Below are positions 29,579 through 64,000 of a DNA stretch of 64,000 nucleotides, piece after piece; within the stretch, counting starts at the first letter, position 1, and each line of letters begins with the position of its first letter. The stretch lies in the NCBI GenBank assembly GCA_964187785.1, contig OZ076409.1:62436001-62500000 (forward strand). The letters run 5' to 3'. The stretch comes from Amphiscolops sp. MND2022. Its lineage: Eukaryota. Position numbers and translations under genes: made by a program. Under the pieces are notes generated by a model. That model was not told the DNA's origin, did no database searches, and saw nothing but the letters and a program-made list of their open reading frames with translations.

Positions 29579-29671
29579 AACTATTTTTCTAATAGAAAAC
29601 GGCGGGTAAAAATGACACCTACTCTGACTAAACTGAGCACTTAAATCAAGGACCATAGCGAGCTACAGTAC

Positions 29672-31798
29672 TGTCACGGCCCGCTACCGGCCGAGGATGC
29701 GACTTCTGCTACGTGCTGGGCAGAGGAAGAGGCAGAGGGTATTCCAAATACCATTGAACTGAACCCGCTAATGTATGTATGTGTAAGCTAACCTAATTCT
29801 ACTTACAGTACAACTAAGATTAGGCGCAGATAAGCTGTTAAGTGAAAAATCCAACGTAAAGGCTACGGAATATTTTTCAGAAATGATTTTAAAACAGCGA
29901 AATTTCCGGCTTAATGTTTTCACATGTAACGCTATATTGCATTTCCGGTTTCGTTTTCTAAAGCGCCATACCAATCTAAATATTAAAACAGAAACATTCT
30001 CTAATAAGGGATCATTCTTTTTCTGCTCCACACTAAAATGAAAACATGAAAATGAAATTCAATTCCGAGAACCCAACGGAATTCGTTTGATCTAAAATGA
30101 AAAGAGCATACAGATAGAATAGTGGAATTGTTTTCCAGCAATTGGATAGTTGTCAATATTCACTTAAGAATACAATCAAGCAACTCGAGAGAATGTTTAC
30201 AAATTTATGACAGCGTCACGCAACTAGATTAAGGAGTAGGTGTTTCTATTTTTACGGACCAATAGCGTCGTCTCCATCATCCTTAGTTACCATAACAACG
30301 CCAATTGAGCGAGAGAATAAGAATGAGTTTGCTAACGCTGTCCGCTCTAACTCCACAAGCTAACACTGCTTAGCTATAACTAATCTTAATACGTACGGAG
30401 CATCTACCGAGCGAATTGTAAGATTGTAATTCAATTGCTCAGCTATAACTAATTTTAATAACTACGGAGCATTTACGGAGCATTTTGCGAAATTGTAACT
30501 GCAATGCATCATTTCAACCGAGTGTTAAACGAGGTTTTTTTGAATCGACGCATTTATGAATTTGTTAGGAATAAGACTTTATATAAAAAAGGTGTACTGT
30601 AAGAAAGGATGATGTAATCCATACCAACAGCTTTGTTTCTGAATGTGTATTGTTTTTTAGTTTTTCACAATTAAGGATGAAGCTAAAGTATTTACTACTC
30701 TTTCAATACCCTATGTAATTTTGTTGCCTTTTTACTATTAATTGTCAAAATGTCATACAATACTCATGAGTTGTTTATGTATATTAACGGATTGTTTCCG
30801 TCATGCAATTATTTGTCCCAATACTGTTGTTATTATGTTCTGTTGCTGCCCCAGTGATATATACTGTCACGTTAAATGCCATCTTAGCATCGTTTGTCCT
30901 CTATTAGCTTTTAAATATTTGCCATTCCCAATTTCTGTTTCAGTTCCGTTGATATTTTTGAGTGTCATACTTTTGCCTCGAGCGTTAAATTTTCCAACTT
31001 GGGAAATGACTAATTGATCACGCCGGCGTACCTTCGTCGATGAAAATTTCGCCTAGACTTTTATTTTGCCGCAATTTTGAGACTCAAACAGGAAATGGAA
31101 CTGTCTGAACAAAAATGATTTCAACAAATGTCACGGAATAGAGACGCAACTAGGAATTTCGATACCTGATTTTACGACGCGGGACTGAAATGATTTGAGT
31201 CATTAGCACTTTTTGATGAACAAACCTGATTTTTGCGATACCTAGGAATTTTTAGGTGAGGAACAAACAATGCTGGGGAAGTATATAAGTGTTTGCATGT
31301 AAATTTAGGTTAGTTAATTTTGTGATCGCTCTTGTAGTAAAACGTGTCGTTGAGTCAACGTAAAACCACTTCTTTGAAGAATTCACTATTCCCAAAGACC
31401 TTCTTTCCACTACCTAAAAATTACAACTAGAAGTTAGAAAAGAAAAGCAGTAGCAGAACTAGCTTCTGGAGATTTCAAAACCCCTGTAGTCGAAAACAAC
31501 TCTAATGAAAACCTAATTGCTGGACCTAGTAAAAACCCTAGAATAGGGCCTGGGAATCTCGAAGAGATAAAAACATCTTTGAGAAGAGAAATCATGACTG
31601 ATTTAACCAAAATACTCGCAGAAAACCAAAAGGAGATATTCAAACTGATAGCACCGCTAAGCAAAAAACGTTCAGTTTCCGCAAATGTCCAGGAATCTGA
31701 CTCTGAGCCTGGAGATGTCCCTGTAGCTAGAACGTCTACACCCGTGAAAACTAATACTGCGACTGGTTCTAAAACAACACCGGTAAACAGTCGTAACA
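29672..31798 (+). repeat. 5' LTR of the Gypsy element
   Basis: Colinear with 43270-45396, with scattered substitutions. TATA-like tatataag at 31282. Internal duplication of about 68 bp at 30372-30505. Confidence 0.96.
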
Positions 31799-32826
31799 TG
31801 GTGACAGAGTCCTCAATGACTCTACCAACCAACCCATGAAAAGACCGAAACAACAACGTGCATCCAGCGAGCAAACAAAGGACCGTCCTTCAACATCTAA
31901 AATACTGTTCGCACCCCAGCCGCAAACCTTCCCACCTGTCAACCAACTTCCGATGCCGAAAGCACTCACCGCTTCGCTTCCAGTCTTTGATGGTAAGTCC
32001 GAAAAGTTTGAACTTTTTGAGGACCTATTCCGAAACAATATCAAAATACCTCACCTAACCGAGATACAAAAGATCAACTATTTCCACTCTTTCCTACGAG
32101 GAAACGCGCTACAAGCGTACTGCAATCTAGACGACACTAAAAAATACAACCTGGAAGAAGTCATAGCGGCATTCAAACGTCGTTTTGGCGATTTCCAATA
32201 ATCTGCTAAGGCAAGATGCGAGTGGGACGCGCTGCATTTTGACCCCACTAAACAGAAACTCCATGAGTTCCTCGATACCTTGCAAAAAACCGCAAAAGTA
32301 GCGTTCCTCTCAGAGGCACAAAAACTTATTGACAAAGCCATATACGCTAAAATGCCGGATCACGTCAAAAAGATCCTCAATAGAGCCTACCTAGAAGATA
32401 AGCCATACAACAATATAGTGCTGCATCTTGAACGGGAGATGCGACTAAACGGACTAGGTACGCCCGACGAAACAACCCTAGTCCCCCTTACCACAGTGGA
32501 CGCCGTAGTGACGGAAGACAAGAAAGAACAACAACAATGAGGCTACTGTTTTCACTGTGGCAAATATGACCACTACAAGGCACAATGCCGTCGCCTCCGC
32601 AAAGACAGGTATTATGCAACAAAAAACAAACAACACTGAAACAAAACAGACCGAGGCACCAAAACCCAAATGTGACACTTGCGGAAAAATGCATAAAACA
32701 ATAAATTAATGGGACGAAGCCAACGCGGCAAACGACCCCCGCAAAAAGAAACGCGAATTTACCAGCCCAATAAACAAGATCGGTGAACAACCCGTACCCA
32801 CCCCGTCCTCTCAGCCAAAAAACTGG
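31420..32826 (+). pseudogene. gag: Gypsy gag, beginning inside the LTR; decayed
   Basis: The frame MTTRS*KRKAVAE...NSRNMVT (ATG intact in the 3' LTR at 45018, ATT at 31420) continues after a 1-nt slip into LPVFDGKSEKFELFEDLF. Knuckle CFHCGKYDHYKAQC plus a second CDTCGKMH remnant. Confidence 0.85.
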
Positions 32827-35800
32827 AATCGCCGCGCCTACGATTTGAGGAAAAAGTAGACGCGAGGGCGTACACAATAGAGGACCCCCCAAACAGGTAC
32901 GAAGAAGACTTTTTAACCGAAGAACCAACGCAGGACTGGCAACGGCGATGGAATGTCGGAATAATCCTCAGACATAACGCCACAAACCCAGAGAACCCAA
33001 CACCACTACCCCAATGGATAACGGAGTCGCCCGATAACTACGCGACACTCAAAAGACCTCTGCCCGAATCAAAAACGGAACGCATTTACATATACGACAG
33101 AGACTACAGATGTGACCCTTGGGATGAACCAACCATTTACGACACAAATAAACTCTCTTTCAAAATCCAAGTTCCCAACCCGCCAGCCCAATCCACAGAA
33201 ATTCCAAATCTACCATCACCACCGTCGCCCATCCTAAAAAGAACAACACTGTCACCCACAGTACCCGTCACCATCACGTCCACACCTTTAAATGCCGAGA
33301 ATATCATCTGCATTGAGGATAAAACAATATGGTCACGACAAGCAAGAGAACAACGAGAGAACACTGATCCGACCTCATCACTGCTACAAACCGCACCAGC
33401 CACAGCAATGAACGCTGAAGACGAAATAACAACGGGATGTCCTTCAAAGCTACCCGAAGATCTAGATATCATCAAAGAATTCAACCAGCACGACAAACAT
33501 GACGACTACATTCCGTTAATGTCCACAATCGCCCTCAAAAAGAAAAACGCATGCTCTTCCTACCAGTCGAATTCAACATTGTCAAAATCGACGCCTTAGT
33601 CGACTCAGGTGCGTACATTAACGCTATTGGTGAAAGGGATGCTGGAAAATTCCGCCAAAACGCGAGTTAACAAAGCACCACCACTCCCTTTCAAAGTACA
33701 GTACGCCAACGCCGAACTTGAACAACCACTTGCCACGTACACCTTACGCTTCAAAATAGGGGATTACACCTTTGAAGAAACATTCATCATCATGAATCAA
33801 ACGTCATTTTCTATAATTGGCTTGGCGTTCCTACGAAAACACGCCGCAATCCTCGACACTGCCCAAGGAACCATTGACTTCGCGAAGATTCAAATCACAA
33901 TGACTCTCACAGATGAAATGCGAAAGTGCAATCCTAAGCCCATCACAATAAAGACCGAAGCCAAGCATACAATTCCTGCGCACTCTACCCGAATCATCTA
34001 CGCATCGATCCACGTGAGTACTGAACATCCAATAACTGGCACAATACAACCCTTACCGCATATTGACGAATGTGCGAAAGTGATAGTAGCCCCAGCAATC
34101 ACCACAGCCAGGGATAAAAAGGTACCAATCAAAACCGCCAACACCACGGATTTTCCGTATACAATAGCTACCGACACCAATATCGCTGAATTACAAATTC
34201 TGAAGCCAGAAGACACGAAGATGATCCGTACAGTCGACAAAGCCACTCTAAATCTCCTCACCGAACACGTTGACGTAGTTACGTACATCAATGCATTAAT
34301 GCAAGTAGAACGGCCCGAAGATAACGAAGAGAAGTTCTGGTTTCCAACCCCAGAAAACCCAGGAGATGAACAAGAACATTCGCCCATCCAAAAGGGGATC
34401 TTGAAAGAACTACGGGACCTCGCCGAATTAGAAAAACTCGACCCAACTGAAAATGAAAAATCCCGAAACAAATTCCTTGCAATGTTCAAACGGACAGACT
34501 CACTGATTACGGGCAAGGACCGTCACAACCTAGAAAACACCATTGTTGAATTCCATGACATCTTTGCTCGTCACAGACTGGACATAGGCATGAACACGCA
34601 ATTCAAATCAGCCTAACTCCCAATCTCAAGGATGACAAACCAGTCTATACCCAAAGTCTACCAGTTCCGATCAACCTCGAAGACGATCTGACAGTGGAAC
34701 TAGCCCTCATGCACAGATTCGGAATCATCACGACACTCCCCTTCTCCAAATATGCCAGTCCCATATTTGCACAACGGAAACCCAACGGCAAGCTGAGACT
34801 ATTGGTGGATCTGCGCAAAATCAACGCACTCATTGCAGATGACATCAACAACAACCACCCCGTCAGCACCCTCTCAGATGCGGCACAACACCTTGCGGGG
34901 AAGAAACTGTTCTGCAATCTCGACTGCTCCCAGGCATACCACTGCCTCCAAATGGTAGACCAAAGGTCAGTAGAATTACTTGCTTTTAACTTAGCTAGTA
35001 GGACGTTTGCCTACCGTCGCCTAGCCCAAGGCCTAAGCAGAGCGTTGTCAGCCTTCTCAAGCTTCATGCGGGAGTATCTCGACTCAGTCATCAAAGCAGA
35101 TCAGCGTGCGCAATACGTTGACGACATTGGCATAGCCGCAAACACAACGGAGCAACTCATCAAGAACATCAGAGCAGTCTTCAAGTGCATCAGGTAAGCG
35201 GGACTAAAACTGACCATTGAAAAAAGTCATTTTGATGTGACACTAGTCGAATTCCTTGGACGAACCATCACCCCGGACGGAATAGCCCCGAAGGATCGAA
35301 AAATCAAAAATTTTCTTTCGAAAGTTCAATTTCCGAAATCCAAAAAACAAGTTCAAAAGTACATTGGGTTTGTCAACTAATATCGCAACTATATACCACG
35401 CCTATCAGAAAAACTTATCGGAATGTTTGAACTGCTAAAAGCCGACTCCAAGATCAGAATTTTAGAAGAACTCGTCGATAACTTCAAAGAAATTAACGCC
35501 AGCCTAGCGGAGGCCTGCGGTCTTGCACTCAGACAACCCATAGCAGGAAAACAATACGTTCTAATGACGCATGCCAGTTTCTGAGCATCTGGCTACGCCC
35601 TCATGATTGAAGAAAATGATGAACGAAAATTGCTCTCCAAAAGAAAAACGTTCGCACCAGTAGCGTTTGGCTCACGTGTATTTTCACCTGCTCAACTGAA
35701 AATGTCCATCTACTGTAAGGAATTCCTGGCAATCTACCATGCCTTCCTCGAATACAGCCACATACTATGGGAGACAACAATTCCGACACTAGTCCTAACA

Positions 35801-38045
35801 GACAACCGCTCAGTCACAAGATTTTTCCAGACAAAAACGACACCTCCTGCACTCTGGAATGCCTGCGACTACGTACTACAATTCAAGTTCCGAATCATGC
35901 ACGTAGCAGGCTCCCAAAACACGGCAGCAGACTTCCTCTCAAGACTCGAACTCACACCGAAAGAGAAAGTACAACTGAAAATACGTGATGACATACTAAC
36001 GACACCAATTGAGGTCAATCTCCAATCCTCAGACGTAGCGGATGAAGAACAACTTTTCTTCCTACCGGACGAAGAAGAAGAATCCGAACAAAAAATATTT
36101 GCAAGGAAAGCACTCAGCAAGCAGTGTTCTATCGACAAACACGAAAAATAACTATCAACAAAAGTAACTGAAGTCCTCAAGATACCCCTCAACTCCGCAG
36201 TCTACTCGTTCGGCGCAATCAAGGAAAATGCACGAATCAGAAATTAGCAAGATGCAGATCCTCTCCTTAAAGCATAGAAACAACGGATCTCACACGAAGA
36301 ATATGACAAACATCTTCTCAAAACTGAACCAAGAGGACGAAACCTATTACGTCACGAAGAACGAATCATATTGAAAGATGGAGTCCTAATGCAGAAATAC
36401 TACGGGGAAGACGGATCAGTTACACACAACCAAATCATAATCCCAAAACACCTAGTCCCAGAACTCTTGTCCACTCTGCATGGAAAAACAAACAAACACC
36501 CAGGATTTACCGAAATGATACAGGAATGCAGAGCGAAATACTACTTTCCGGGTCTTGCACGTAAAATCAGAGCTTGGGTAACCAGCTGCTCAGATTGCAT
36601 TACCAACAAAAGAATAGACACGAGAGAGATACGTCCCAAATTGCTCAGCAACACCGAATTCACCATGGGACCAGAAGACTGTTTAGAAGTGGACATCTTA
36701 CCGAATCTTACTTCCTCAAATGGATACCAACACATCATAACGATGATGGACGTTTTCTCTCGCTACCTTTTCGCATACCCGACTCAAGACATGACAGCAA
36801 AAACAGTGGCAAGATGCAGAATTGATGTCATGACAAGGCATTGCTACCTACCAACCGTGATACTAACATTCAAAGGGTCACAGTTCAGATCTGAGGTAGT
36901 CAGCCAAATAGCTCAAACGCTCGACATACGGATAAGCCACGCATCAACGAAACATGCTCAAACAATCGGCATCTTAGAAAGAACACACGCTTCTTTGAAA
37001 ACTTCGGTAAAAATTTCAACGGGAGAACGCCGTTCCATGTAGCACAAATACGTCGAAATTGCAGTCATGAACTACAATACAAGCTACCACGAAAGCTCAG
37101 GGTGTGAACCCTTAACAGTGTTCCACGGACGCATTCCGTACAACATCCTAGACATCAAATTTGGACTGAAGCCCAATTGGAAGAATGACAACACCGAAGA
37201 ATTAACGGATCAACTACAAAAACGAATAGCCGAAATACATCAAGCAGCTAAAGACAATTTAATGCAGTCCTATCTGAAATACAAACAGTACTACGACAAG
37301 AAGGCATCAGCTACGTCCTTAACGACTACTGCTACGTCCTTAACCCGAAAGCAGACAATCAATCAATGAAATTTACCTTCAAAGATTGTGTTTGGACTGG
37401 TCCTTACATGGTCGTTAAAGTCCTCTCGAACAATAAATACGTCGTACGTCGCACGGGAACTCGATATACTCAAACCCTCCATAGAATTCGCCTAAGGCTA
37501 TATGCGCTCAATCAGCGAATACCTGACGTAACAGTCAGAAGGGAAGATTACCTTCCAGACCCAGAGGTTAAAACAACCCACAATGATTGGTACGCGCAAG
37601 CTTGGGAAACTGAATTCGTAGAAGTTCTGTTCGGAAATACCACAGACAACGTTTCAGAAGAAACCACAGTTACAGAGATCACAGATACAGCAGGAAATGA
37701 CGACAATACAGCGGAAAATGTTGTGGTTCAAACAAACACAAACGAAACTATTACGGAAAATGACGTGGTTCGAACAACAACAAATGAGAATACTGAAGAG
37801 GATAAAACATCCTCCGATAACGTTACGTCATTCAACCTAGATGTCAGCGATAGTCCATATATTTTGACTCCGCCGCCTATAACAAGCCCCCCCCCCCCCC
37901 AAAAAAAACTTTTGAACTACCACCTATTGTCATTGGGTATAACCCCAGAAAAATTGGAAGATATAACTTGCGACCTAATGCCAATCCTGACTTCAGAATG
38001 CTTGACTCAGTTACTTCGGAAGACTTACGTCAAACTCACAACTAA
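32817..38045 (+). pseudogene. pol: Gypsy pol (long pre-protease region, PR, RT, RNase H, integrase); decayed
   Basis: PR LVDSGA near 33595; RT KLRLLVDLRKIN, LDCSQAY, YVDD; RH EFLAI, TDNRS, NTAADFLSR; IN LH-x5-HPG...CSDC, DVFSRY, ERTH. Gypsy order RT-RH-IN. Confidence 0.93.
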
Positions 38046-38227
38046 ATGAAAAGATCAGCATACCAAAACGAACCGGAATGGCTACGTCAAATTGTGCTTC
38101 AACTTTCTAAACTCTATGAACACAATGGATACCAGACGTACCCCAACAAAACATATACATCAACAAAGCAAATGGAGTCATTAAACAGTACAAAAATTTT
38201 CACTTTATATGACGAAAGACGTTTGGA

Positions 38228-41200
38228 TCAACAGTTTTTTCCGGGCTTCCTTTTATTCCCTTTTTGACTACTCGTACCAGCACCAACTGACTTGCCAGAC
38301 GATGACAGAGGTTTTTTTCCAGAACCCGACTTTTGTACGTCACCTCTAAAATTCTTCGAACCCATATTCGATGAACTACATGCATCTGAGGTAGGAGTTG
38401 CGGCATTCACGCGGGCAAGACAATTTGCTTTGTTACACTCCACATAATGATGCTCATAAGACTTCCGACGCTCCAGTAAATATGTATCATAGGCTTTCCT
38501 ACTCAGTGAAACAAACGAAGCCACTCCGGGATCACAAACATCTTTCCAAACATCATAACCTGGGGTAACGAAAAATATACCAGCACTGGCAATGGCATCA
38601 CGAACTGCACCCAAAGTAGACTCTGTAAAAAACAAACGTGGACAATACCCAGGACTCAACACAAAACTTTGCACGAGCCGGAGACAGTCCTGAAAAATGT
38701 CCTTGCCAATCCTACTGCCCCCCAAGTCGAGGATCACCTGCGGTTGAACTCCGCAAGAACTACCCATAACCAAACAGCATAACTTCAATACGCGACAAAC
38801 ATGATGACGAGCTTGGAAACTAAAATCGTGTAGTAAATACTGCACCACATTAGAAATCTCGCTAGCAGTAATGTTGGAGCGATCGTGCTGCCTCCGCTTC
38901 TCAAGAATGTAATTGTTAAACTGCTCAACACTCGTTTTTGTCTCATCCGCAGCTAGTAACCCACATGACCCTAGCACACCAGTCAAATCGGCAAAAAGAC
39001 GAAACACTGCACTATCATCACCCTCGAGCATATTTTCAGGGCAAATACAGCTGAAGCCACGGGCCACTCTCGACGAAACTGCAGGATTCTTTAGGATGAC
39101 GAATACCAAACGATCAAGGAACTCTTTGCAGTGAACACGGAATTCCAAGACTCCACTCGTCTTACCAGCGGACAATAACCGACCGAAATCACAATTCTCA
39201 AGGAACGATTCAATTGGAGCGGGAGGAAATTCGGCCACCTTTTCGACATCCATATATTCCTCCCAGTCATGAATAGGAGGCAAACTGGAGATGTCTCGAG
39301 TCTTCATCAAGAGGCAGTAGACGAAATGACACAGCTCTCCGTATCCTGCCGTACATGGAAGCCTTAATCTGCCCGACACTGTTGTAACTTCTCAAACTTG
39401 AAGAAAACTAAAACAGAGAACTTACAATTTTTCATCAGACAGAAGATCGAAACTCAAATAACGAACAACAGTCGGAACAACAGATAGAATCCCAGACGCA
39501 ATCGATATACCCGAAGAACAATTCATCAGTCCAGAAATCATACTCACATGTATCGAGCACGAAACGTAACAACTCGAATCGATATGTAATTATATCATCA
39601 GCAACCAAATGCCAATCTGGACCTCGCATCTAAACCACACAACAAAACTACAAACAAAACAAGCCAATTCTCACTTCCACAAGACAAACATGCAATACTA
39701 ACACTATCGTCTTTCTCTTTTGCTTCGGGATTCCCAGTGCAGCGAATGTAAGGACGGACCGACGGCCACAGATCGATCAAATCATTCAACGGGCACGATA
39801 GTCACAGAAATTGACGGAACCCTGCCGAACACGCTTGCGCAACACTGGCTTACCCTCCGTCCACTCCTCGTACAACGCACTTTTTAGTCGCTGCACAACA
39901 TAATCCACAATCGTCACCACCTCCACCAAACCAAAGACATCCTTGTGAGCCTGTCGGAAGCACTGCAAGAAAACCTCTTCACTGAAGGATTGATATATGA
40001 CGAAGCGACGACCACCCTCGCGAATGTTTCCCAAAACCCGAACCAATGACGGACTAGCACCAGAAAGAGCAACTGGCAGCTGCTTAGTGGGAAGGCTTTA
40101 TACAATTCGCGACAAAGGCATCAACTCTGCATTGGGGACGGGCTGTTCTAAAGGCTCTTTTCCAATACACACCTTCTTCAGATGGTTTTCTTCCCAGCAA
40201 AGCACATAACGGAACTCCAAGGACGCTGACTTCTCGAATTGCAAACTCTACCCTCTCAAGGAGGTAATGTGCTTGACCATCAACCACAACACGCGAGGGG
40301 CCAAGGCTTGGCACATAATTGACTAAAATATAGACGCCATTGTCACCGCGACATACAACGCAGGAAATTCCAGCCGAAAAGAAAAGAAAAAGAGACAACA
40401 AATCCTACGCAAAACAAATAGGAAAAAGACGAACATCTTACCACGGTTTCGGAACGGCTCCAATTCAAAGCGAACTCAGTTTTCCGATGGCCCAAAGACG
40501 AACAAAAATGGCCCTCTCCCAGACAACCCACAAACGTCATGAACGTAACTTTAGATTCCACCCCAGAGTGTTTCTCAACAAGATCCTCAGGGAACGGGTA
40601 CTCTTTTTTAAGATCTTCGAAAGGTTTAGCCCGATATTCAGCCAACTGTGCCGCTGTCATTTCCATGGGTTCCATCAAACGATTAAGGACCGGCAAACCC
40701 ATGTGCACCCTGTAAGTCACGTCCTTGATCCAATGTTTGTCAGACTCAAAATGACGCCTAAACTCTCCGGAGCCCTGTGCTTTCATGGCCACATCACGAC
40801 AGCACACTCGACAATGGAAGTACGTCGCCTGACCGTTCTTTGCATCGCTCACGAAGCTCTTGTAGGCAGGGTGGAGATCTAACATGCGGCGATGCAACAA
40901 CTTACGGCTGCTGTATTTCTTGGGAGCTCTTTGGCCTCCAACCTTTTCGCTGAGTTCACGGAATCCTACAACACAAAAACGCTCCTAACAAAAAACAAAA
41001 AATTACAAAAACAAACAAGAGAAAGAAACGGAGGAGAAGAAACCACAACCCACAACCAGAAACCAAGCGAAAACAAAACGACAAACAGGCAATAAGCAAA
41101 AGAAAAGGCCCACAATTAAGCATTAAATTAGCAACATTTCAGTGCGGATAGTTTGCGAAGTCCGATTCCCCACCTCGTCCACCAAGCGCTGACTCAGCCG

Positions 41201-42063
41201 CATCAGCTCACTTGAAGTGACCAGCATATCATTTGCAGAGGCAGCCGGATCCTCTTCTTGACTGTCCCAACCTCCACGTGCTCGAATCAATGGTGGTGGG
41301 CTCGGAGGAGGAGCAACAGCTTTCATGGCTCGCTTAGGTGGCGTTGAAAAATTCACAGACGGCCTTGTATCGGAACAACTTTTAAACCCTAATAATACAG
41401 ATTCAACAAAAATACTACCCGCCATACCCTCGTCCTAAAGTAATACTTAACAATGTTTTCAACAACTAGCTTGATCTTTTCTCAGCAGGGGGATGGTCTC
41501 ACCTCCTTGAGACTCACTATCGGTAGACAGTCCGAGACTAACTCCAGCGCCCCCTGTAAGTACACGAGATCCACTTGTCACAGTAGCTGACAGAGGAATG
41601 TTGACAGAACCGCTAGGTACAGCAGGATGGGAAGTCTCAAGATCAGGAACAACCAAGGTGGAGACCAATGCCTCGTTAACGGAACTAGTCCGGAAAGCAG
41701 GAAGAACTTCGGAAATTGAAGGCAGAACAGTAATGGAAGTTCTAGTTATCTCCTCATTGGCTTTCAGGGACTCCCCCACTTGGGATACAGTGACAGTAGA
41801 ACAAATGACAGGTTGAGTTACTGAAAATTAAGATCTGGTTCAGACGCGTCAGGAAATCGGGTAAGACTACAAAGGCTGATCACCAAAAAAACAAAACCTA
41901 AATACCCATGGAAGTCAGAAAAATTTTGCCAACCTGGGACAGGAGGTCCAATATCGGAACCAGACGGAATTACATCGTCGTCGCTGAATCCAAAAACAGT
42001 CTCATTCCCACTGACAAAGCCTGTAGACGTAACAGGAGGAGGAACGCCCTCATCATTATCCAT
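38228..42063 (-). pseudogene. Antisense multi-exon hAT-transposase-like gene inside the Gypsy element; BED-like finger present, catalytic acidic residues apparently lost
   Basis: FHCRVC-x13-RHFESDKH finger; RSETV/SIMCQALAP..SLQFEK; LIDLWPSVRPYI; LEFRVHCKEFL...RGFSCICP; 383-aa ORF 38228-39379. Phase-0 GT-AG introns at 40441-40323 and 39702-39630, and a long pyrimidine tract ending at acceptor 40966. Confidence 0.6.
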
Positions 42064-42099
42064 CTTTAGAAATCAGTAGAAGAAATCTCCTCAGCAATC

Positions 42100-42650
42100 G
42101 AAAAAAGAAAAGAACATTTAGAAAAAATGAAGAAGAATTACGTTATGTGAACGCAACTAACTGACAGGAAATTAACATTATCACTCCTGTACAATTGAAA
42201 AGTTACATAATCTTCAACTTCAATAAAAGCCTAATATGGCATTGACGGAACAAAAGGTTTCCAGAACTCTCCAGGTGAATTAAAAGTTCACCAAGAAGCT
42301 CTGAAGAAACCCTTTCAAAAAGCCATTTCAGATATTACGCTTAGGAGCCGTATTCCCTTTGAAAGAAACTGATGACGTCATTACGACAAAGCTGAAACGA
42401 AACGAAACTAAAACGGAATTTTCTTTGAATTAATTAATCTACCAATCACAGAGAAGTTGAAAGTTCGTCGCCTTAAAAGGTCAGGACGGACCGGAACGAA
42501 AGCGGGAAAAATCAACCAATAAAATTCGAAGAGAACCACGACGGAAAAGAAATTGAAACGGTCATTTGTCGTCCAATTTTCAAAGAAGCTTGACCAGCAT
42601 TTTCTCTCTCCAAACTAACTGCGCAAATCTCCTACACGAATCAAAGTCTA
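42100..42650. promoter_or_regulatory. Candidate internal bidirectional promoter
   Basis: Lies between divergent ATGs (42063 on -, 42653 on +). CRE palindrome TGACGTCA at 42373-42380; CCAAT boxes at 42442 and 42516. Confidence 0.4.
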
Positions 42651-42652
42651 AA

Positions 42653-43355
42653 ATGGACGGCTACTCACTCGTCATAGACATATCTTCAGACGAAGAAAAT
42701 ATGAGACACAGCACCCCAATAAAAACCCTGCCACTCAACTTAATCAGGACGCTGAATATCAGCGATTCGTCCACGGAAGTTTATAGGGGCAGCGAAGCAG
42801 AATTAGACTCCACTTGGGAATCCGAGTGCTCTCCAAAGAGAGCGAAATTGTCACCTCAGAAGAAGAAATTAGCAAAAGTTACGTTTAAGCTGCCCGCCGC
42901 CGTTTGCAAACAAAAAAATAAATTGGACTCTGATTCTGACGATTTCTACGAAGAACCAGACTCGTCTTTAGAAGAAATGCATCTGAAAGCATCACGGAAA
43001 TCAAACGTCCAACCCGGGCAAGAAACCCAGGGAAGCAGTCTGAACGACCTCAACGAACCCACAAAACCCCCCGAAATTTCCCGCGAAGAAAAAGAACATC
43101 AAGAAGCTATGATCAGAGAACTAGAGGAAGAAGAAAAAAAATCGCCTATATGACTGCGGGTAGAGGGTCCCCATCAAATACGTAAATTCATCAGCCGCCC
43201 CCTGTAGTCATAAAGAAGGAGATCCTCATTGCCACAACCTTCCGGTGTCTATGGCTTCAAGAGGGGCCCTGTCACGGCCCGCTCCCGGCCGAGGATGCGA
43301 CTTCTGCTACGTGCTGGGCAGAGGAAGAGGCAGAGGGTATTGCAAATACCATTGA
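42653..43355 (+). pseudogene. Sense accessory ORF (about 230 aa when repaired) running into the 3' LTR
   Basis: Open 42653-43153 (LVIDISSDEE, PKRAKLSPQKKK, acidic tracts). Removing one A from the A-run near 43135 and reading through one TAG extends it across the PPT to ...GRGCDFCYVLGRGRGRGYCKYH* at 43355. Confidence 0.55.
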
Positions 43356-45396
43356 ATTGAAACCGCTAATGTATGTATGTGTAAACTAATCTAATTCTAC
43401 TCACAGTACAACTAAGATTAAGCGCAGATAAGCTGTTAAGTGAAAAATCCAACGTAAAGGGTACGGAATATTTTTCAAAAATGATTTTAAAACAGCGAAG
43501 TTTCCGGTTTAATGTTTTCACATGTAACGCTATATTCCATTTCCAGTTTCGTTTTCTAAATCGCCATACTAATCTAAATACTGAAACAGAAACATTCTCT
43601 AATAAGGGATCATTCTTTTTCTGCTCCACACTAAAATGAAAACATGAAAATGAAATTCGATTCCGAGACCCCAGCGGAATTCATACGATCTAAAATGAAA
43701 AGAGCATACAGATAAAATAGTGGAATTGTTTTCCAGCAATTGGATAGTTGTCAATATTCACTTAAGAATACAATGAAGCAACTTGAGAGAATGCTTACAA
43801 CGTTATGACAGCGTCACTCAATTAGATTAAGGAGTAGGTGTTTCTATTTTTATGGACCAATAGCGTCGTCTCCACCGTCTTTAGTTACCATAGCAACTCC
43901 AAGTGAGCGAGAGAATAAGAATGAGTTTGCTAACGCTGTCCGCTCTAACTCCACAAGCTAACACTGCTTAGCTATAACTAATCTTAATACGTACGGAGCA
44001 TCTACGGAGCGAATTGTAAGATTGTAATTCAATTGCTCAGCTATAACTAATCTTAATAACTACAGAGCATTTACGGAGCAGTTTGCGAAATTGTATCTGC
44101 AATGCATCATTTCAACCGAGTGTTAAACGAGGTTTTTCTGAATCGACGCATTTATTAATTTGTTAGGAATAAGACTTTATATAAAAAAATTGTACTGCAA
44201 GAAAGGAAGATGTAATCCATACCAACAGTGTTGTTTCTGGATGTGAATTGTTTCATTAGATTTTCACAATTAAGGATGAAGCAAAATTATTTACTACTCT
44301 TTCAATACCCTATGTAATTTTGTTGCCTTTTTACTATCAATTGTCAAAATGTCATACAATACTCATGAGTTGTTTATGTATATTAACGGATTGTTTCCGT
44401 CATGCAATTATTTGTCCCAATACTGTTGTTATTATGTTCTGTTGCTGCCCCAATGATATTTACTGTCAAGTTAAATGCCATCTTAGCATCGTTTGTCCTC
44501 TATTAGCTTTTAAATTATTGCCATTCCCAATTTCCGTTTCAGTTCCGTTGATATTTTTGAGTGTCATACTTTTGCCTCGAGCGTTAAATTTTCCAACTTG
44601 GGAAATGACTAATTGATCACGCCGGCGTACCTTCGTCGATGAAAATTTCGCCTAGATTTTTATTTTGCCGCAATTTTGAGACTCAAACAGGAAATGGAAC
44701 TGTCTGAACAAAAATGATTTCAACAAATGTCACGGAAAAGACACGCAACTAGGAATTTCGATAGCTGATTTTACCACGCGGGACTGAAATGATTTGAGTC
44801 ATTAGCGCTTTTTGATGAACAAACCTGGTTTTTGTGATACTTAGGAATTTTTAGATGAGGAACAAACGATGCTGGGAAAGTATATAAGTGTTTGCATGTA
44901 AATTTAAGTTAGTTAATTTTGTAATCGCTCTTGTAGTAAAACGTTTCGTTGAGTCAACGTAAAACCACTCCTTTGAAGAATTCACTCTTTCCAGAGACCT
45001 TCTTTCCACTACCTAAAATGACAACTAGAAGTTAGAAAAGAAAAGCAGTAGCAGAACTAGCTTCTGGAGATTTCGAAACCCCTGTAGTCGAAAACAACTC
45101 TGATGAAAACCTAATTGCTGGACCTAGTAAAAACCCTAGAATAGAGCCTGGGAATCTCGAAGAGATAAAAACATCTTTGAGAAGAGAAATCATGACTGAT
45201 TTAACCAAAACACTCGCAGAAAACCAAAAGGAGATATTCAAATTGATAGCACCGCTAAGCAAGAAACGTTCAGTTTCCGCAATTGTCCAGGAATCTGACT
45301 CTGAGCCTGAAGATGTCCCTGTAGCTAGAACGTCTACACCCGTGAAAACTAATACTGCGACTGGTTCTAAAACAACACCGGTAAACAGTCGTAACA
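43270..45396 (+). repeat. 3' LTR of the Gypsy element
   Basis: Colinear with the 5' LTR and followed by the TSD AGTAC. Confidence 0.96.
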
Positions 45397-45649
45397 AGTA
45401 CAGTACTTCATTTGCAGCCGAGTTGTCTATCGATTATCAACTTGGAGCTGTGATTCCGAAACGACTTCGGAAATGTCAAAAAGTATAATTGCACGACTTT
45501 ACTCTTTTGATTTTTGTTTTCTATTCGCACCAAATTCGTTTGTTTTATTACCAGACAACAAAAGATTCGAGCATTCATTCCGCACCATCAAAATGTGAAT
45601 ATCTAAACGTTTTATGATTCAAAGTTTAATTTTTCGACTAAATCTGTTT

Positions 45650-53284: not shown

Positions 53285-54201
53285 GGTGGGGTGTTTTTGG
53301 ATCGAATTTTTGTGTGAGCGAAAAACGAGATCGAAATGGGATCGAAAGTTTTGAGATCGAATTATTCATTTCTTGCTAGGTTTTTGTTGGCGTGCGGCAA
53401 TAGCGTCGAACTTTGACACGTCGAGTTTCTAACGCCGAATCATTAGAGTCGAATAACAACGTCGAATCTAGTCGAACAACCAATGTCGAATTATTGTCGA
53501 AATTATGTCGAGTTTCAGTCAAATAAAAGATGTAGGTTCGAAAAATCAATTAGTGGACTTTCCCCACCTAATATGGGTCATATACGGTGTATGCACGGGT
53601 TAGGGAGAATTTGCCGAAAAACAATTTGCCGAAACCCAATTTGCCGAACGTGAAAGACAATTTGCCGAAAATTATTATTCCCTGAGTCAATTTTCGGCAA
53701 ATTGTTATTCGGCAAATTGTCCCGTATCCTCCATGCACGCTCACCTTCACCGTCACAAAGACCAGCCTCGAAACAGGTCGAAAAAAACAAGTCGAAAAAA
53801 TTCTGATCGAAAAAGGTCGAAAAATCCTGCGATGCGTTTAAAAGCGTTCAAATTATTTTAGGTACTTTTGTCCACCCAATATGGGGTCATAAACGGTGCA
53901 TGCACGCTTGCCCTTACCGTCGCAAAGACCAGCTCCCACTACGATCGCTTCGCGATCTCCGTTGACGCAAGGTCTTTGCTCCTGTTGGACCTCGCTTAGC
54001 GAGATGGGAACATAAGCGGCCCCAAGTGGCCGTGGGGCACTAGAGGAAATGGGGGTATTTCCGAAAGCCAGAACATTGTTAATTCAAAACGCTAGGTATT
54101 TGAAAACCTTGATTCATCGCTTTTTCTTCGACGATTTTACTTCGATCTCAGTGACAGATTGCATATCCGCGCAAATTGATTCGATCCAAACGTCCACCGC
54201 C
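53285..54201. mobile_element. Composite MITE, MULE-type, 9-bp TSD, with nested MITEs
   Basis: TIR ggtggggtgtttttggatcg / cgatccaaacgtccaccgcc. TSD atccaatac at 53276-53284 and 54202-54210. Confidence 0.8.
53598..53729. mobile_element. 132-bp MITE nested in the shared core
   Basis: TIR ggttagggagaatttgccgaa / ttcggcaaattgtcccgtatcc; internal aatttgccgaa repeats; flanks tgtatgcacg / tccatgcacg. Confidence 0.75.
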
Positions 54202-54210
54202 ATCCAATAC

Positions 54211-55300
54211 GCCGTTTACACGGTCTTTCTTGCACCAAGAGTGCTGGTCGCTTCTCACGTTATGCTACTCTCAATTCTCTCATAAAGCAGACGTTGGGAT
54301 CTCTCGACTTGCCTTCATTGCTCGAACCGCGTAGACTGTACCGAACTGATGACAAACGCCCAGACTGTGCTACCATGATTACTTGGGAAATGGGTAAACA
54401 ATTGGTGTGGAATGTCACAGTTGTGGACGCTCTTGCACCCAGTAGCCTGGATCAAGTCTCCTTGTGCTACCCGGGAACGGGTGGCTGTTAATATGTCGAT
54501 ATTTTCTGGTCGAAAGGACAGAGGGTTAACCTTTTGATCGAATTGCAGGGATCGAATGGAATGCGGTCGAATTTGATCGAAACGTCTTTGTCGCCGAAAC
54601 GTCCTTTAAAAAACTAAAAACGTTCGTTCTGGAAGCGAAAATATTATTATGTAGGGCATATGCTGTGCATGCACGCTCGCCCTCACCGTATCAAAGACAA
54701 GCGCCAACTACGATCGCTTCGCTATCTCCGTTTTCGCTAGGTCTTTGCTCTTGTTCGACCACGGTTAGCAAGATTGGAACATAAGTGGCCCCAAGGGCCC
54801 GCGGGGCACTAGAGGAAATGGGGACATATCCGGGACACGTTTTATACTTTTCTAGAAAAATCTATCTGCGGCAATTCGATTTGTTTCCCAAAAATCAAAA
54901 TTTCGATCCGAGTTGTTTCGATCCCATTCAAAAAGTTGGTATGTCGACCCGAGGACTTACTCTGATTTTCGATCGCGTTCCGTCGACCTATTTCCGCCCA
55001 CCCCCGGGAACCACCGCCACCGAGGCTGGAGCGCGTAAAATTGATAAGTATCGCGAATTGATAGACAATGGATAAAGTTTTCACACAGTGGCCATGTACA
55101 GGGTTCTTTAGGTGAGAGCAGTGAAATTTTCATCACGCGTCTCTGTAAAATGCTCTGTCGTTCGCACAACGATCAACGAGCTGACAGCTTTTTGAAGCAA
55201 AGGATGATTTCAATGGCTCTTCAGATTGGCAATGCGGCCTGTGCTCTAGGAACTGTGAGCGAGAGATGCGTTCGAAGAAATTTAATACATTTAGTTTATT
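54211..55300 (+). pseudogene. 3' fragment of a restriction-like-endonuclease (CRE-like) non-LTR retrotransposon, split by a MITE
   Basis: HGLSCTKSAGRFSR..LN (finger end), KRPD..MITWEMGKQLVWNVTVVD, then after the insert TEAGARKIDKY...GSLG...FLKQR.SMALQIGNA. Confidence 0.8.
54479..55003. mobile_element. 525-bp MITE with GGG...CCC ends and an 8-bp TSD (Merlin- or MULE-like)
   Basis: TIR gggtggctgttaatatgtcga / tcgacctatttccgcccaccc. TSD ccgggaac at 54471-54478 and 55004-55011. Confidence 0.85.
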
Positions 55301-55446
55301 TTTTTCAAACTGTATATAATTGCAGCTTTTTGAGAATTTGTTTCTACCGGTCTACTGGGATGGTGGCTGATATGAGCAGGTTGTTAGTTTTTTGTTGTTA
55401 CTGGTCGACTGGGATAGTGGCTGGTATGGGGTGCCCTACTTCCGTT

Positions 55447-55818
55447 GGGATGCCTCAAAACAGGTCGAAAAAAACAGGTTGAAAAAAATCTGATCGAAAA
55501 AGGTCGAAAAATCCTGCGAAGCGTTTAAAAGTGTTTAAAGTATTTTAGGTACTTTTGTCCACCCAATATGGGGTCATATACGGTGTGTGCATGCTCGTCC
55601 TCACCGTCGCAAAGACCAGCTCCCACTACGATCGCTTCGGGGCACTAGAGGAAATGGGGGCATATCCGACAGCCAAAAATATTTTTTGAAAACGCTAGGT
55701 GTTTGAAAACATTGATTCGATCTCATTTTCGTTGACAAATTTACTTCGAAGATTCCTTCGACCGCAGTTTTGTCGATCGTTTTCGACCTGTTTTTTTTCA
55801 ACCTGTTTCAGGTCACCC
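55447..55818. mobile_element. 372-bp MITE with an 8-bp TSD
   Basis: TIR gggatgcctcaaaacaggtcgaaaaaaacagg / cctgttttttttcaacctgtttcaggtcaccc. Flanks cttccgtt / ctttcgtt. Confidence 0.8.
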
Positions 55819-56565: not shown

Positions 56566-57000
56566 TCAATCACTGTTCACGACAAGCAAGAGAGTTTCCA
56601 CGTTCCAGTAGTTTTTAATCACAGCCAGGTAAAGATTCTCCTCAAAATTCACTGGAAGGATCCTGTTTCGCAGGGGTGATCGGATGTTTTTAGCCTTACT
56701 GAACAGACATTCGACAATATTGGAAGTTGGAGGAACCCAATGCAGCTTCATCATCGTTTTTAAAGCAGGGACCGGTTCTCGAGAGAGGAGTACGGACTCC
56801 GCGAACGACTTGTGGCCCGTTTCAACGTCAGCATTAGAATGACTGGCTTCCTGTTGGGTTCTGAAGCGCTCCAGGTGAACTTTCTCTGCCAGTTTCAGAT
56901 CTTCATAAAAGACAGAAAAGATTTAACAATAGCAGCTTCAAACTGAGGATTATCCACGGTTTCGGCTCGTTCACTCAGATACCTGCACATGGAATAAAAC
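56566..57000 (-). pseudogene. hAT transposase C-terminal (dimerisation) remnant
   Basis: WVPPTSNIVECLFSKAK...LRNRILPVNFE (compare PTSxxVERxFS). Confidence 0.8.
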
Positions 57001-57010
57001 TTCGAACCAA

Positions 57011-58078
57011 TAAAATTGAACGGGAAGCTATGGCTATCTTGGAAGGCTTCCGCCGTTTCTCAGACCTGTTATGGACGTCACCGGTTCCAGTTCGCACTGA
57101 TCAAAAGGCCCTCTCTTTCATATTTGGGCCCAACTCTTCCAGAGTAAAGAATGACGAACTGATTCGCTGGCGCCTGGAACTTTCGGAATACAACTTCGAG
57201 ATAAGCTACCAGAGAGGTTGTCAGAACGTGTCAGCTGACGCCCTGTCTCAATTAGCGTCCCTACAGCCCAGCTGTAAAACCCTACACGAGACACTTGCGA
57301 ATCCAGGAGTGACCCGACTGTACGAATACATTCAAAGACACAAAGTCCCAATATCTTTAGATGAGGCGAAAAGAGTTACCGAGAACTGCAAAACGTGCGC
57401 TTTATGGAAACCGCGCTTTTTGCGACCCCACGGCAGCAATCTTATTCGATCCTCCAAACCTTGGAAGCGACTATCAATCGACCTTGTTGTCCTCAAACCA
57501 ATGACTAGAAACAAAACCCAATACTTTCTCACAGTGGTGGATGAGTTTAGTATGTTTCCCTTCGCCTTCCCTCTCCAGAACATCACGTCTAGTAGCGTCA
57601 TCAAGTGTCTTTCAACACTTTTCCTCCAGTCCCTCCAGTAGCGCACCTTGGCTCAGAGCAGACGCTCCCGTGTACCTCCGGAAATTTGTAAGGGCGAAAG
57701 ACCAAGCTCCAGTTCTGCCTGTACAGATATCCGAAGTCATCTCCCCTCACCTTGCACGAGTCTCCTTTGGCGATGGGCGAGCTGCAACTGTTTCTACAAG
57801 TGACCTCTCTCGACGACCGCCGGATATTGACAATGAAGGAACGACCTCACAACCTGTAGGTCAATACAAAGACAAGGAGACCGATGTAGACATCAGAACA
57901 TCGGGTCCTGACATCAGAACCGAAGGTGAACCACCTAAATCTGTGGAACCAATAAAGAAGTCTCAATTCAGCCCGGAGTCTCCCGCTCCCACCTTGCGAC
58001 GCACTGCTAGGAACAGGAAACCACCTACATACCTAGGCGACTTTGTGTCGGCTATGAACTAGAGACTTTCGAAGCGGG
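57011..58078 (+). pseudogene. Gypsy RNase H-integrase fragment
   Basis: EREAMAI, TDQKAL, RWRLELSEY, NVSADALS, LH-x4-NPG...CKTC, VVDEFS, LRRTARNRKPP. Purine-rich end just before the gap. Confidence 0.85.
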
Positions 58079-58079
58079 A

Positions 58080-58279
58080 NNNNNNNNNNNNNNNNNNNNN
58101 NNNNNNNNNNNNNNNNNNNNNNNNNNNNNNNNNNNNNNNNNNNNNNNNNNNNNNNNNNNNNNNNNNNNNNNNNNNNNNNNNNNNNNNNNNNNNNNNNNNN
58201 NNNNNNNNNNNNNNNNNNNNNNNNNNNNNNNNNNNNNNNNNNNNNNNNNNNNNNNNNNNNNNNNNNNNNNNNNNNNNNN
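58080..58279. other. Assembly gap (200 N)
   Basis: Run of N. Confidence 1.
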
Positions 58280-59316
58280 ATATAGAAAGAACCCAAGAAT
58301 TAATTGATAAAAATAATATAAAGAACGGACAAGAACTAACTATGTTATACTTGAAAATGGATGTTCTTCAATTAGCTGATGTATTCGAAAACTTTGTGGA
58401 AAGTTCTACACGAGAATATAAAAATAATCCTTTGTATAGTTACTCTCTACCTGGTTATACATGGAAAGCTGGTTTGAAGTTGACTAATATAAAGTTAGAC
58501 TTTAGAATAATTACTAAAGATAAAGAATTATTACTACTACTTGAAAATAATAACCGTGGAGGAATTTCAAAAGTTATGGGTGAATCGTCACGTGCAATCT
58601 GATGAAAATAAACAAATCTTATATATTGATGCAAATAATCTATATGGATGGGCAAGGAGTCAATACCTTCTTACAAGTGAATTCGAAAAACTACAACTAC
58701 CAGAACTAGATAATCAACTAGAACAAATAGGAGAAGATTTGACTCATTGCCCAGACAATAATGAATTTGGCTACTTTATAGAATGTGATTTAGAATATCC
58801 TGTTGAAATTAAAGGAAAAACAAAAAAACTTTCCTTTTTGTCCGTATCAAACAAAAGCAGATCCAGACTTATTCTCAGGTTATATGAATAATGTAAATCA
58901 ACCTAATTACAAACCAACCCCCAAAACTTATGTGTGATGTAACCAATAAATCGAAATATATGATACATTATAGAATGTTCAAATTTTACATCAACATGGG
59001 TATGAAAGTAACAAAGATACATACGATTTATAGATTCAAACAATCACTTTGGTTAGAAAAATACAATAATCATAATACCCAAAAACTCACCAAAGCAAAA
59101 ACAAACTTCGAAAAGGATCTTTATAAATTAATGAATAATGCTTTCTTTGTTAAGACTATGGAAAATGTAAGAGACCGTGGTAATCTAGAATTCATTGATC
59201 AAACTCAAATACAACAAATAATAAAAAGACAATCCAAGTTAAGTTTCAAAGGAATCATGGATCATTATTCTAAGTTTAGTGAGTACAAGTTTGATAAAGA
59301 AAAAACAATATTCATC
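58280..59316 (+). pseudogene. Polinton/Maverick-type family-B (protein-primed) DNA polymerase fragment
   Basis: LYLKMDVLQLADVFENF, SLPGYTW, RGGIS, YIDANNLYGWA.SQYL, ECDLEYP, YKLMNNAFF.KTMENVR. Frameshifted. Confidence 0.85.
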
Positions 59317-60099
59317 TAGTGCCCCGCGGCCCCTTGGGGCCACTTATGTTCCCATCTTGCTAAGCGAGGTCGAACAGGAGCAAAGACCTAGCGGGAACGG
59401 AGATCGCGAAGCGATCGTAGTGGGAGCTGGTCTTTGTGACGGTGAGGGCGAGCGTGCATACATCAGATTTGCCCCACATTAGAAAGGAAAAGTACCGGAA
59501 ATTTTCTGAGAACTTTACGAAAGGTAATGTTTTATTCTTGACACACCGGATATGCCTGATATGAGAATTCGAACTTGGTTCACATAATCCACTAGTTCAC
59601 ATTCGAACTTAGTAAATCGAACTTATTGCCCGAAGCCCATTGAGAGGGGTAAGGAAAAAGTCTACAACAGATTTGCTTTGCAGATCCATGACCCTATCTG
59701 AAAGAAACTTACGAGATGAATTTCCCGAGAAAAGAAAAATATGGTGCCATTATGGCAGAGCTACCATACATAATGGCCATTTTTCTCAGTGCAGTCATAA
59801 ATAATTTCCATATATTTATGGCCATATATGGTAATGGCCATTATGGAGTTCCAATCCCTTGCCATCCTGGGCATCATCTTCCCCTTCCATTTCTTCCGGC
59901 TGAATATTCTTTTTCTGAGAGAGAGAGAAAAAACACTGTATTATTGTATAGGGTGAGCTGGTGTCAGTATACAATCGGTGTAGAATGATATATGCTGAAG
60001 CATAAAGGATTTTTTCAAGTTTTACAGGGCGATAAATCAGGTGAAGCGGCAATCACGTCAAGAATGAGATGTATGGATAGGCATACGACTACTTTCCAA

Positions 60100-63514: not shown

Positions 63515-64000
63515 GGGCACAAACTACGATCTAAGGAATAAGATCGAAACGCACTTCTGTAACTAAGATCTAAAGAACTAAGATCTAAATGTCATTTTTC
63601 GTAACTAAGATCTAGAGAATGCCAGCTCCCGAATCGTACCGAAAGTCTAAATTTCAGACGTTATTCCCGTTTTAATTTCCGTTATTCCCATTTTTTAGAT
63701 GTTACGGTAAAGTATAAAATGCTTTAAAGTATAAAACGTGCCTCAGATATGTCCCAATTTCCTCTAGTGCCCTGCGGCCCCTTGGGGCCGCTTATGTTCC
63801 CATCTTGCTAAGCGAGGTCGAACAGGAGCAAAGACCTAGCGGGAACGGAGATCGCGAAGCGATCGTAGTGGGAGCTGGTCTTTGCGACGGTGAGGGCGAG
63901 CGTGCATACACCGTATATGACCCCACATTATTCCTTAGACGTTATTTTAATTCAATTTAGACCTTAGTTACGGTGCATGCTTTTTAGATCTTAGTTCTTT
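63515..64000. mobile_element. MITE with taagatctaa-rich arms carrying the shared core; runs off the window
   Basis: Starts gggcac at 63515. aagaactaagatctaaa (about 63572) pairs with tttagatcttagttcttt (window end). Core at 63747-63930 on the - strand. Confidence 0.7.

Follow-up and report, generated by a model that had tools for sequence, protein, structure and literature searches.

The window, by which we mean the whole 64,000-nucleotide stretch that was analysed, contains a Ty3/Gypsy LTR retrotransposon of 15,725 bp (positions 29672-45396). It has the marks of that group: LTRs, a target-site duplication, a primer-binding site (PBS), a polypurine tract (PPT), and a pol in which reverse transcriptase is followed by RNase H and integrase, the order typical of Ty3/Gypsy. 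The domains that Pfam recognized in gag-pol were DUF1759, RVT_1, RT_RNaseH, Integrase_H2C2, and rve; no match to a protease was found by Pfam in the element's pol. Comparison of the two 2.1-kb LTRs showed that they are 95.5% identical (K2P 0.046), that both have TG...CA termini, and that only 2 indels separate them. The element has no env. The region between pol and the 3' LTR is 5.2 kb long and holds an antisense gene in pieces and a sense accessory ORF. Working in base-pair order, the features are as follows:

29667-29671 (no strand): left copy of the target-site duplication AGTAC; the right copy is at 45397-45401
29672-31798 (+): 5' LTR, 2127 bp, TG...CA
31438-38049 (+): gag-pol, interrupted by stops and frame changes
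31799-31816 (+): position of the primer-binding site, starting TGG
38228-42063 (-): antisense gene, fragmented, with T-rich gaps that resemble introns, from ORF pieces and matches to relatives
42457-42597 (no strand): conserved non-coding stretch, 55-195 nt upstream of the accessory ATG and inside a gap of ~590 bp
42653-43156 (+): first open piece of the accessory gene, 166 amino acids, homologous in frame to ~43141
42671-42697 (+): VIDISSDEE, a SIM-type hydrophobic core followed by a Ser/acidic run (motif pattern)
42713-42724 (+): TPIK, a CDK-type site (STP[ILV]K in 90 of 103 relatives)
42830-42868 (+): SPKR / SPQKKK basic patch, NLS-like, with CDK-type sites (K[KR]x[KR] in 19 of 29 relatives)
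42875-42886 (+): KVTF, a PP1-type RVxF word (in 104 of 144 relatives)
43135-43229 (+): broken stretch with four frame changes relative to unbroken relatives
43230-43269 (+): PxC word and polypurine tract, both translated in the accessory frame by alignment to relatives
43270-43355 (+): LTR-encoded tail with a Cys pair, a Gly/Arg run, and the stop; the first 86 nt of the 3' LTR
43270-45396 (+): 3' LTR, from comparison of the LTRs

Both ends of the LTR are protein-coding, with the tail of the accessory protein at its start and gag at its end. The gag frame (31438-31839) opens within the 5' LTR and runs over the LTR end and the PBS; the last ~380 nt of the LTR are the start of gag, and their counterpart in the 3' LTR is at 45018-45396 (+). 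One natural protein, P0215, matches positions 31420-31632, the region of the gag start.

A satellite array (~22300 to ~28800), whose units measure 101-104 nt and whose higher-order pattern is ~306/410 nt, ends ~1 kb from the left end of the element. Direct repeats of 103 nt (97%) at 12423-17420 flank ORFs at 12723-16805, one of which has a weak match to a gag zinc knuckle, and this is another retroelement-like unit. Unannotated ORFs at 9080-11884 are enclosed by a pair of direct repeats (at least 296 nt, 98%) that lie 2.5 kb from each other; this is possibly a small non-autonomous LTR element. More RNase H/integrase and reverse transcriptase remnants lie at 56865-57641 (+) and 60749-61804 (-), an assembly gap of 200 N lies at 58080-58279, and a dispersed repeat of ~190 nt occurs in both orientations at 53765-55639, 59311-59484, and 63726-63929.

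The accessory frame in the window and its relatives

The 166-amino-acid ORF carries the features that the initial annotation ascribed to it, namely LVIDISSDEE, the basic PKRAKLSPQKKK, and acidic tracts. When the window is read in all six frames (127,996 codons), the combination of a SIM core and acidic residues occurs three times and, on the + strand, in the accessory ORF only. It was also correctly described that the first 86 nt of the 3' LTR (from 43270) encode SRPAPG...YCKYH followed by a stop, and that the 5' LTR version ends in YSKYH. The bridge between the two parts had been read as one slip and one TAG, and this does not hold: with the unbroken relatives P0003, P0019, and P0008 as reference, the homologous reading shifts frame four times, near 43140, 43165, 43200, and 43225. 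The TAG at 43161, together with the peptide downstream of it, is off-frame relative to unbroken relatives and was rejected as an in-frame stop. All four frame changes are packed into ~95 nt (43135-43229), whereas the LTR pair differs by two indels over its full length; such clustering reflects either local decay or an assembly error. The window copy is a broken member of an accessory-gene family. The open frame in the 5' LTR, previously taken as support, is indeed open, but so are all three frames at the start of both LTRs (for 28, 39, and 29 codons); because of this, and because the LTRs are so nearly identical, it is no evidence and was dropped.

The search for relatives was seeded with the window protein and gave 100 matches among 200 candidates (one being the window protein itself) and 4 among 804 longer candidates. 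The resulting 103 natural relatives comprise 666 member sequences, all labelled ENA, none named, and none with a Pfam domain. They are proteins without DNA context, placed in elements by a tail that resembles the start of the window LTR, and they may stem from one or a few assemblies; their DNA was not found in viral contigs or in JGI metagenomes. In 28 relatives (508 of the 666 members), no break interrupts the frame between the SIM-like word and the stop codon, which follows RGALSRPAPG and lies within the LTR-like tail. These 28 proteins are 216-301 amino acids long and 33-95% identical (median 48%), and the internal length changes among them preserve the frame. All cross the PPT and terminate ~28 codons into U3, so the reading does not stop before the PPT, and neither the frame nor the SIM-like word is lost. 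Part of the invariance of LSRPAPG can reflect constraint on the DNA from the PPT and the integrase end.

The same test is passed by 59 of the 84 members listed for six large clusters, and several of those that fail are full length with point changes; for the three clusters that are largest and most uniform, 13 of the 15 members listed are unbroken. This distribution, with the frame and SIM-like word maintained across 16 lineages, is that of a conserved accessory ORF (aORF) rather than of a one-off capture. That both are kept so widely while the PPT is crossed argues for a true accessory gene, and from these comparisons we are nearly certain that a real, conserved, and previously unnamed protein-coding gene is present.

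To tell constraint on the protein from constraint on the DNA in U3, a natural frame-shifted protein from each lineage was matched with a closely similar unbroken one, and the window was added (8 lineages; P0038 and P0100 were excluded, as their partners were <80% identical). Over the first 8 LTR codons, 217 of 224 comparisons were identical in the ORF frame vs. 163 of 224 in the shifted frame; over the first 14 codons, the figures were 288 and 200 of 392. Among the 28 lineage pairs, which are not mutually independent, the ORF frame was better kept in 21, equally kept in 7, and worse in none. This is the direction that change at third codon positions would predict.

Of 1.84 billion representatives searched with a profile, 173 matched at E ≤ 0.001, and 150 of these were listed (≤303 amino acids); 50 of the 131 new matches were inspected, and all resembled members, fragments, or chimeras of the accessory family. 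Six proteins (P0305, P0307, P0308, P0310, P0312, and P0313) join unrelated N-termini to the LTR tail; in these, a frame that starts in flanking DNA runs by chance into a 5' or solo LTR. Read-ins of this kind could hand the accessory tail to host ORFs.

Short conserved words in a disordered protein

AlphaFold models of 27 sequences contained one acidic helix, the rest being disordered (pLDDT 56, pTM 0.21). The highest hydropathy over 19 residues was 0.23-0.91 across 29 full-length relatives, which corresponds to no membrane helix, and an env-like role was rejected on the same values. Pfam recognized no family in any of 27 members, sequence comparison with the PDB gave no match (best E = 1.4), and neither the Atlas (for the accessory protein) nor Rfam gave a match; homology to Nef, Bel2, Tas, or Tat was rejected on the Pfam and PDB results. 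The product is thus predicted to be a disordered, non-membrane protein with its conservation focused in short words. Such a protein, as modelled, is compatible with the role of a nuclear regulator.

SIM and CDK-type words were recognized by their general motif patterns, including that of the SIM core. The full-length set of 29 proteins consists of the unbroken relatives with P0035 removed, because of an off-frame stretch, and P0183 and P0185 added. This set and a larger one of 144 proteins were preselected on the SIM-like word, and only the count over all 103 relatives, themselves found by a search seeded with the window protein, is unfiltered. By that count the word is conserved in 95 of 103 relatives, 71 of which have exactly VIDISSDEE; it occurs in 16 of 16 lineages of the filtered set, with a chance rate of 0.02 per shuffled protein. 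It is the best-kept word of the protein. GRG is present in all 29 full-length relatives (chance 0.09), a PxC lies ten to eleven residues ahead of the LTR start in 27 of 28, and a Cys pair is found in the tail of 25 of 28 (CxxC in 10 and CC in 15). STP[ILV]K, a CDK-type TPxK, occurs in 90 of 103; the CDK pattern has a high chance rate of 0.39.

Two earlier assignments fared less well. The Cys/His tail does not hold up as a zinc finger: a terminal CxxC..CxxH exists in only 5 of 28 relatives (97 of 508 members). The rest carry a CC or CxxC but lack the terminal pair, and a C3H finger was rejected as a family trait. The spacing given, C-x2-C-x12-C-x2-H, occurs in none of the 28; the actual spacing is C-x2-C-x11-C-x2-H, in the same five. 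The NLS-like basic patch is present in the window as described, but K[KR]x[KR] is found in 19 of the 29 full-length relatives and missing from 10. LNIS varies among relatives and was rejected as a pLxIS motif.

Directly after the basic patch is an RVxF-type word, KVTF at 42875, which was overlooked in the initial annotation. It is present in 104 of the 144 relatives that are in frame past this word, in 19 of 29 full-length relatives, and in 9 of 16 lineages; it is absent from 10 and 7 of the last two, respectively, and from most of the shorter, deep-branching clade. The forms seen are RVSF (28), RVTF (25), KVSF (19), RKINF (14), KVTF (9), and rarer ones, following the pattern R/K, V/I, any residue but Pro, F (chance 0.06-0.14). 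Its distance from the SIM is 45-110 residues, or 63-70 in full-length lineages. Because the RVxF word and the basic patch are each missing from 10 of 29 full-length relatives, neither is essential to the core job of the family. RVxF is the main PP1-docking word (excerpt of PMC10807198). Judged from its pattern and conservation, the SIM-like word quite probably binds SUMO, and binding of PP1 by the RVxF word is favoured with less assurance.

The antisense gene and the shared gap

The antisense gene was missed in the initial annotation; it and the accessory gene lie head-to-head, ~590 bp apart. Its T-rich gaps are bordered by GT/AG-like words, which suggests a spliced structure, and its putative introns, being antisense, would survive reverse transcription. 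A C2H2-like finger lies near 40810-40730. Two chimeric natural proteins match parts of the gene, P0202 (63% over 108 amino acids) and P0072 (62% over 32 amino acids), and connect the antisense finger and N-terminus with the sense gene that distant lineages carry; these rearrangements suggest that the antisense gene is a stable component of the family. It has no Pfam match, and no relatives of 679-2000 amino acids were found among 6683 candidates, which is weak evidence. Origin from a hAT transposase is a lead only, the comparison having given weak Atlas leads (0.75-0.76). A single-sequence fold model of part of the protein was unusable (pLDDT 37.6).

Within the gap, positions 42457-42597 are kept between distant lineages. 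Of 15 relatives with extended N-termini, 9 include this stretch, and two different frames are used among them. Being read in different frames, the stretch is likely to be a DNA or RNA signal, and it is a candidate internal promoter or splice signal. Just upstream of the accessory ATG, an ACTAAC word lies ~30 nt before an AG, which keeps splicing in play; expression from the gene's own promoter is nonetheless slightly favoured. Internal promoters have precedents in Tor elements, for env (excerpt of PMC4402516), and in Grande, for gene23 (PMC7264820).

Proposed role and alternatives

As a tentative leading reading, we suggest that the accessory protein is a nuclear adaptor built of short motifs that favours expression of its element, by activation or by counter-silencing. 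The gene would have a subgenomic RNA of its own, most likely made from an internal promoter in the gap shared with the antisense gene. The protein would enter the nucleus and act as an adaptor, its phospho-regulated SIM docking on chromatin or silencing proteins that bear SUMO, its RVxF word (in the larger clade) recruiting PP1, and its Gly/Arg-Cys tail contacting element RNA or DNA. The net effect would be an element kept transcribed, comparable to PP1 recruitment of the Tat type and to SIM-bearing viral antagonists. Phospho-SIM behaviour of the kind proposed has been described (excerpt of PMC4276917), SUMO is required for piRNA silencing and recruits SetDB1 in transposon silencing (excerpt of 10.1101/533091), and Tat recruits PP1 through an RVxF word (excerpt of PMC10807198).

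What is conserved across the 16 lineages points to SUMO and PP1 as host partners, and a four-residue word would address each. If this is true, a modulator of SUMO-dependent silencing is encoded by a retrotransposon itself, in convergence with Tat and SIM-bearing viral proteins, and such a gene would help to account for the high copy number of these families. To our knowledge, extra ORFs are common in LTR retrotransposons, and nearly all are without a testable function. Additional ORFs downstream of pol and ahead of the 3' LTR are already known; what appears to be new is a gene for a soluble SIM-RVxF-RG protein that reaches into U3. A protein of this kind ending in U3 beside an antisense finger gene was not found among the open-access papers that the literature searches listed; repeat databases and supplements, outside the scope of that search, may catalogue the element without this annotation. 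A broader proposal, rather doubtful when taken as a whole, is that an env-less Ty3/Gypsy lineage independently evolved the layout of a complex retrovirus. It would have a two-gene cassette with a shared promoter, in which an antisense zinc-finger protein with an intron-bearing gene, possibly from a hAT transposase, recognizes element DNA and a sense SIM-RVxF-RG adaptor reads SUMO and recruits PP1, the two jointly countering SUMO-dependent repression.

The proposed likeness of position to Nef and Bel2 was borne out as a layout, a sense ORF running across the PPT into U3. Lentiviral nef overlaps U3. Foamy-virus tas/bel2 are likewise 3' accessory genes (excerpt of PMC7828637), and all lie immediately ahead of the 3' LTR and extend into it; there is no sequence match, and the present element is env-less, so that the likeness is one of layout only. 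The aORFs known from the region that separates pol from the 3' LTR are conserved, occur in sense and antisense, and are proposed nuclear regulators (PMC7264820); Retand elements also have additional ORFs (excerpt of PMC11963269). The likeness lies in conserved extra genes on both strands of a long pol-to-LTR region. However, the sense aORFs reviewed in PMC7264820 are env-like with membrane segments, whereas the accessory protein is predicted to be soluble and disordered and crosses the PPT into U3; the sense and antisense genes here are head-to-head, and there is no match to TRP28 or to any other Pfam family. HIV-1 Tat and viral PP1 adaptors (excerpt of PMC10807198) are also small nuclear proteins with a basic patch, cysteines, and RVxF, nuclear location being presumed for the accessory protein; the latter has no homology to Tat, adds a SIM and acidic tracts, has lost RVxF in one clade, and docks PP1 only by prediction. 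The phospho-SIMs of PML, Daxx, and PIAS1 likewise have a hydrophobic core and, after it, serines in acidic surroundings of the CK2 type (excerpt of PMC4276917), whereas the accessory SIM is a match to the pattern and is encoded by a transposon.

A SIM alone does not separate activation from repression and could equally serve repression or targeting. The strongest alternative, which we nevertheless hold to be unlikely, is an RNA factor like Rev or CERV of C. elegans Cer1, whose Gly/Arg tail binds unspliced element RNA (including the antisense region) and exports or protects it under phospho-control. GRG (29/29), PxC (27/28), and the Cys pair (25/28) are as constant as the SIM, and Cer1, also an animal LTR retrotransposon, has in CERV an orphan accessory protein that is a nuclear, phospho-controlled export factor with an NLS and a Cys-rich part (excerpt of PMC10309623). 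However, CERV is a folded protein of 517 amino acids spliced from gag-region exons (same excerpt), whereas the accessory protein is 3'-terminal, separate, and disordered in AlphaFold models, and its best-kept word is the SIM; identity with CERV was rejected in the absence of folded H/M/G domains and gag-shared exons.

Two further alternatives are both quite improbable. In one, the protein limits its own element, its SIM gathering SUMO-dependent repressors on element chromatin and thereby capping copy number or restricting the cells in which it is active. The same set of motifs would serve, and the recruitment of SetDB1 by SUMO (excerpt of 10.1101/533091) fits, but in the clusters that are largest and most uniform, the gene is unbroken (13 of the 15 members listed), as expected of one that helps spread. 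In the other, a Vpr-like helper of integration is packaged with the cDNA, the basic patch providing nuclear entry, the SIM tethering it to SUMO-rich, repeat-rich chromatin, and the CDK sites timing it to the cell cycle. CDK-type sites do flank the basic patch and the satellite array lies ~1 kb from the window copy; however, this is a single insertion site, and several lineages have no basic patch. Finally, that there is no protein, and that DNA or RNA signals (PPT, LTR end, promoter) are conserved around an incidental open frame, would suit the broken window copy and the first 86 nt of the LTR (59% GC, all three frames open), but it is largely refuted and highly improbable because the frame is kept over 216-301 codons down to 33% identity, changes inside motifs are conservative, and conservation favours the ORF frame in 21 of 28 pairs and the shifted one in none.
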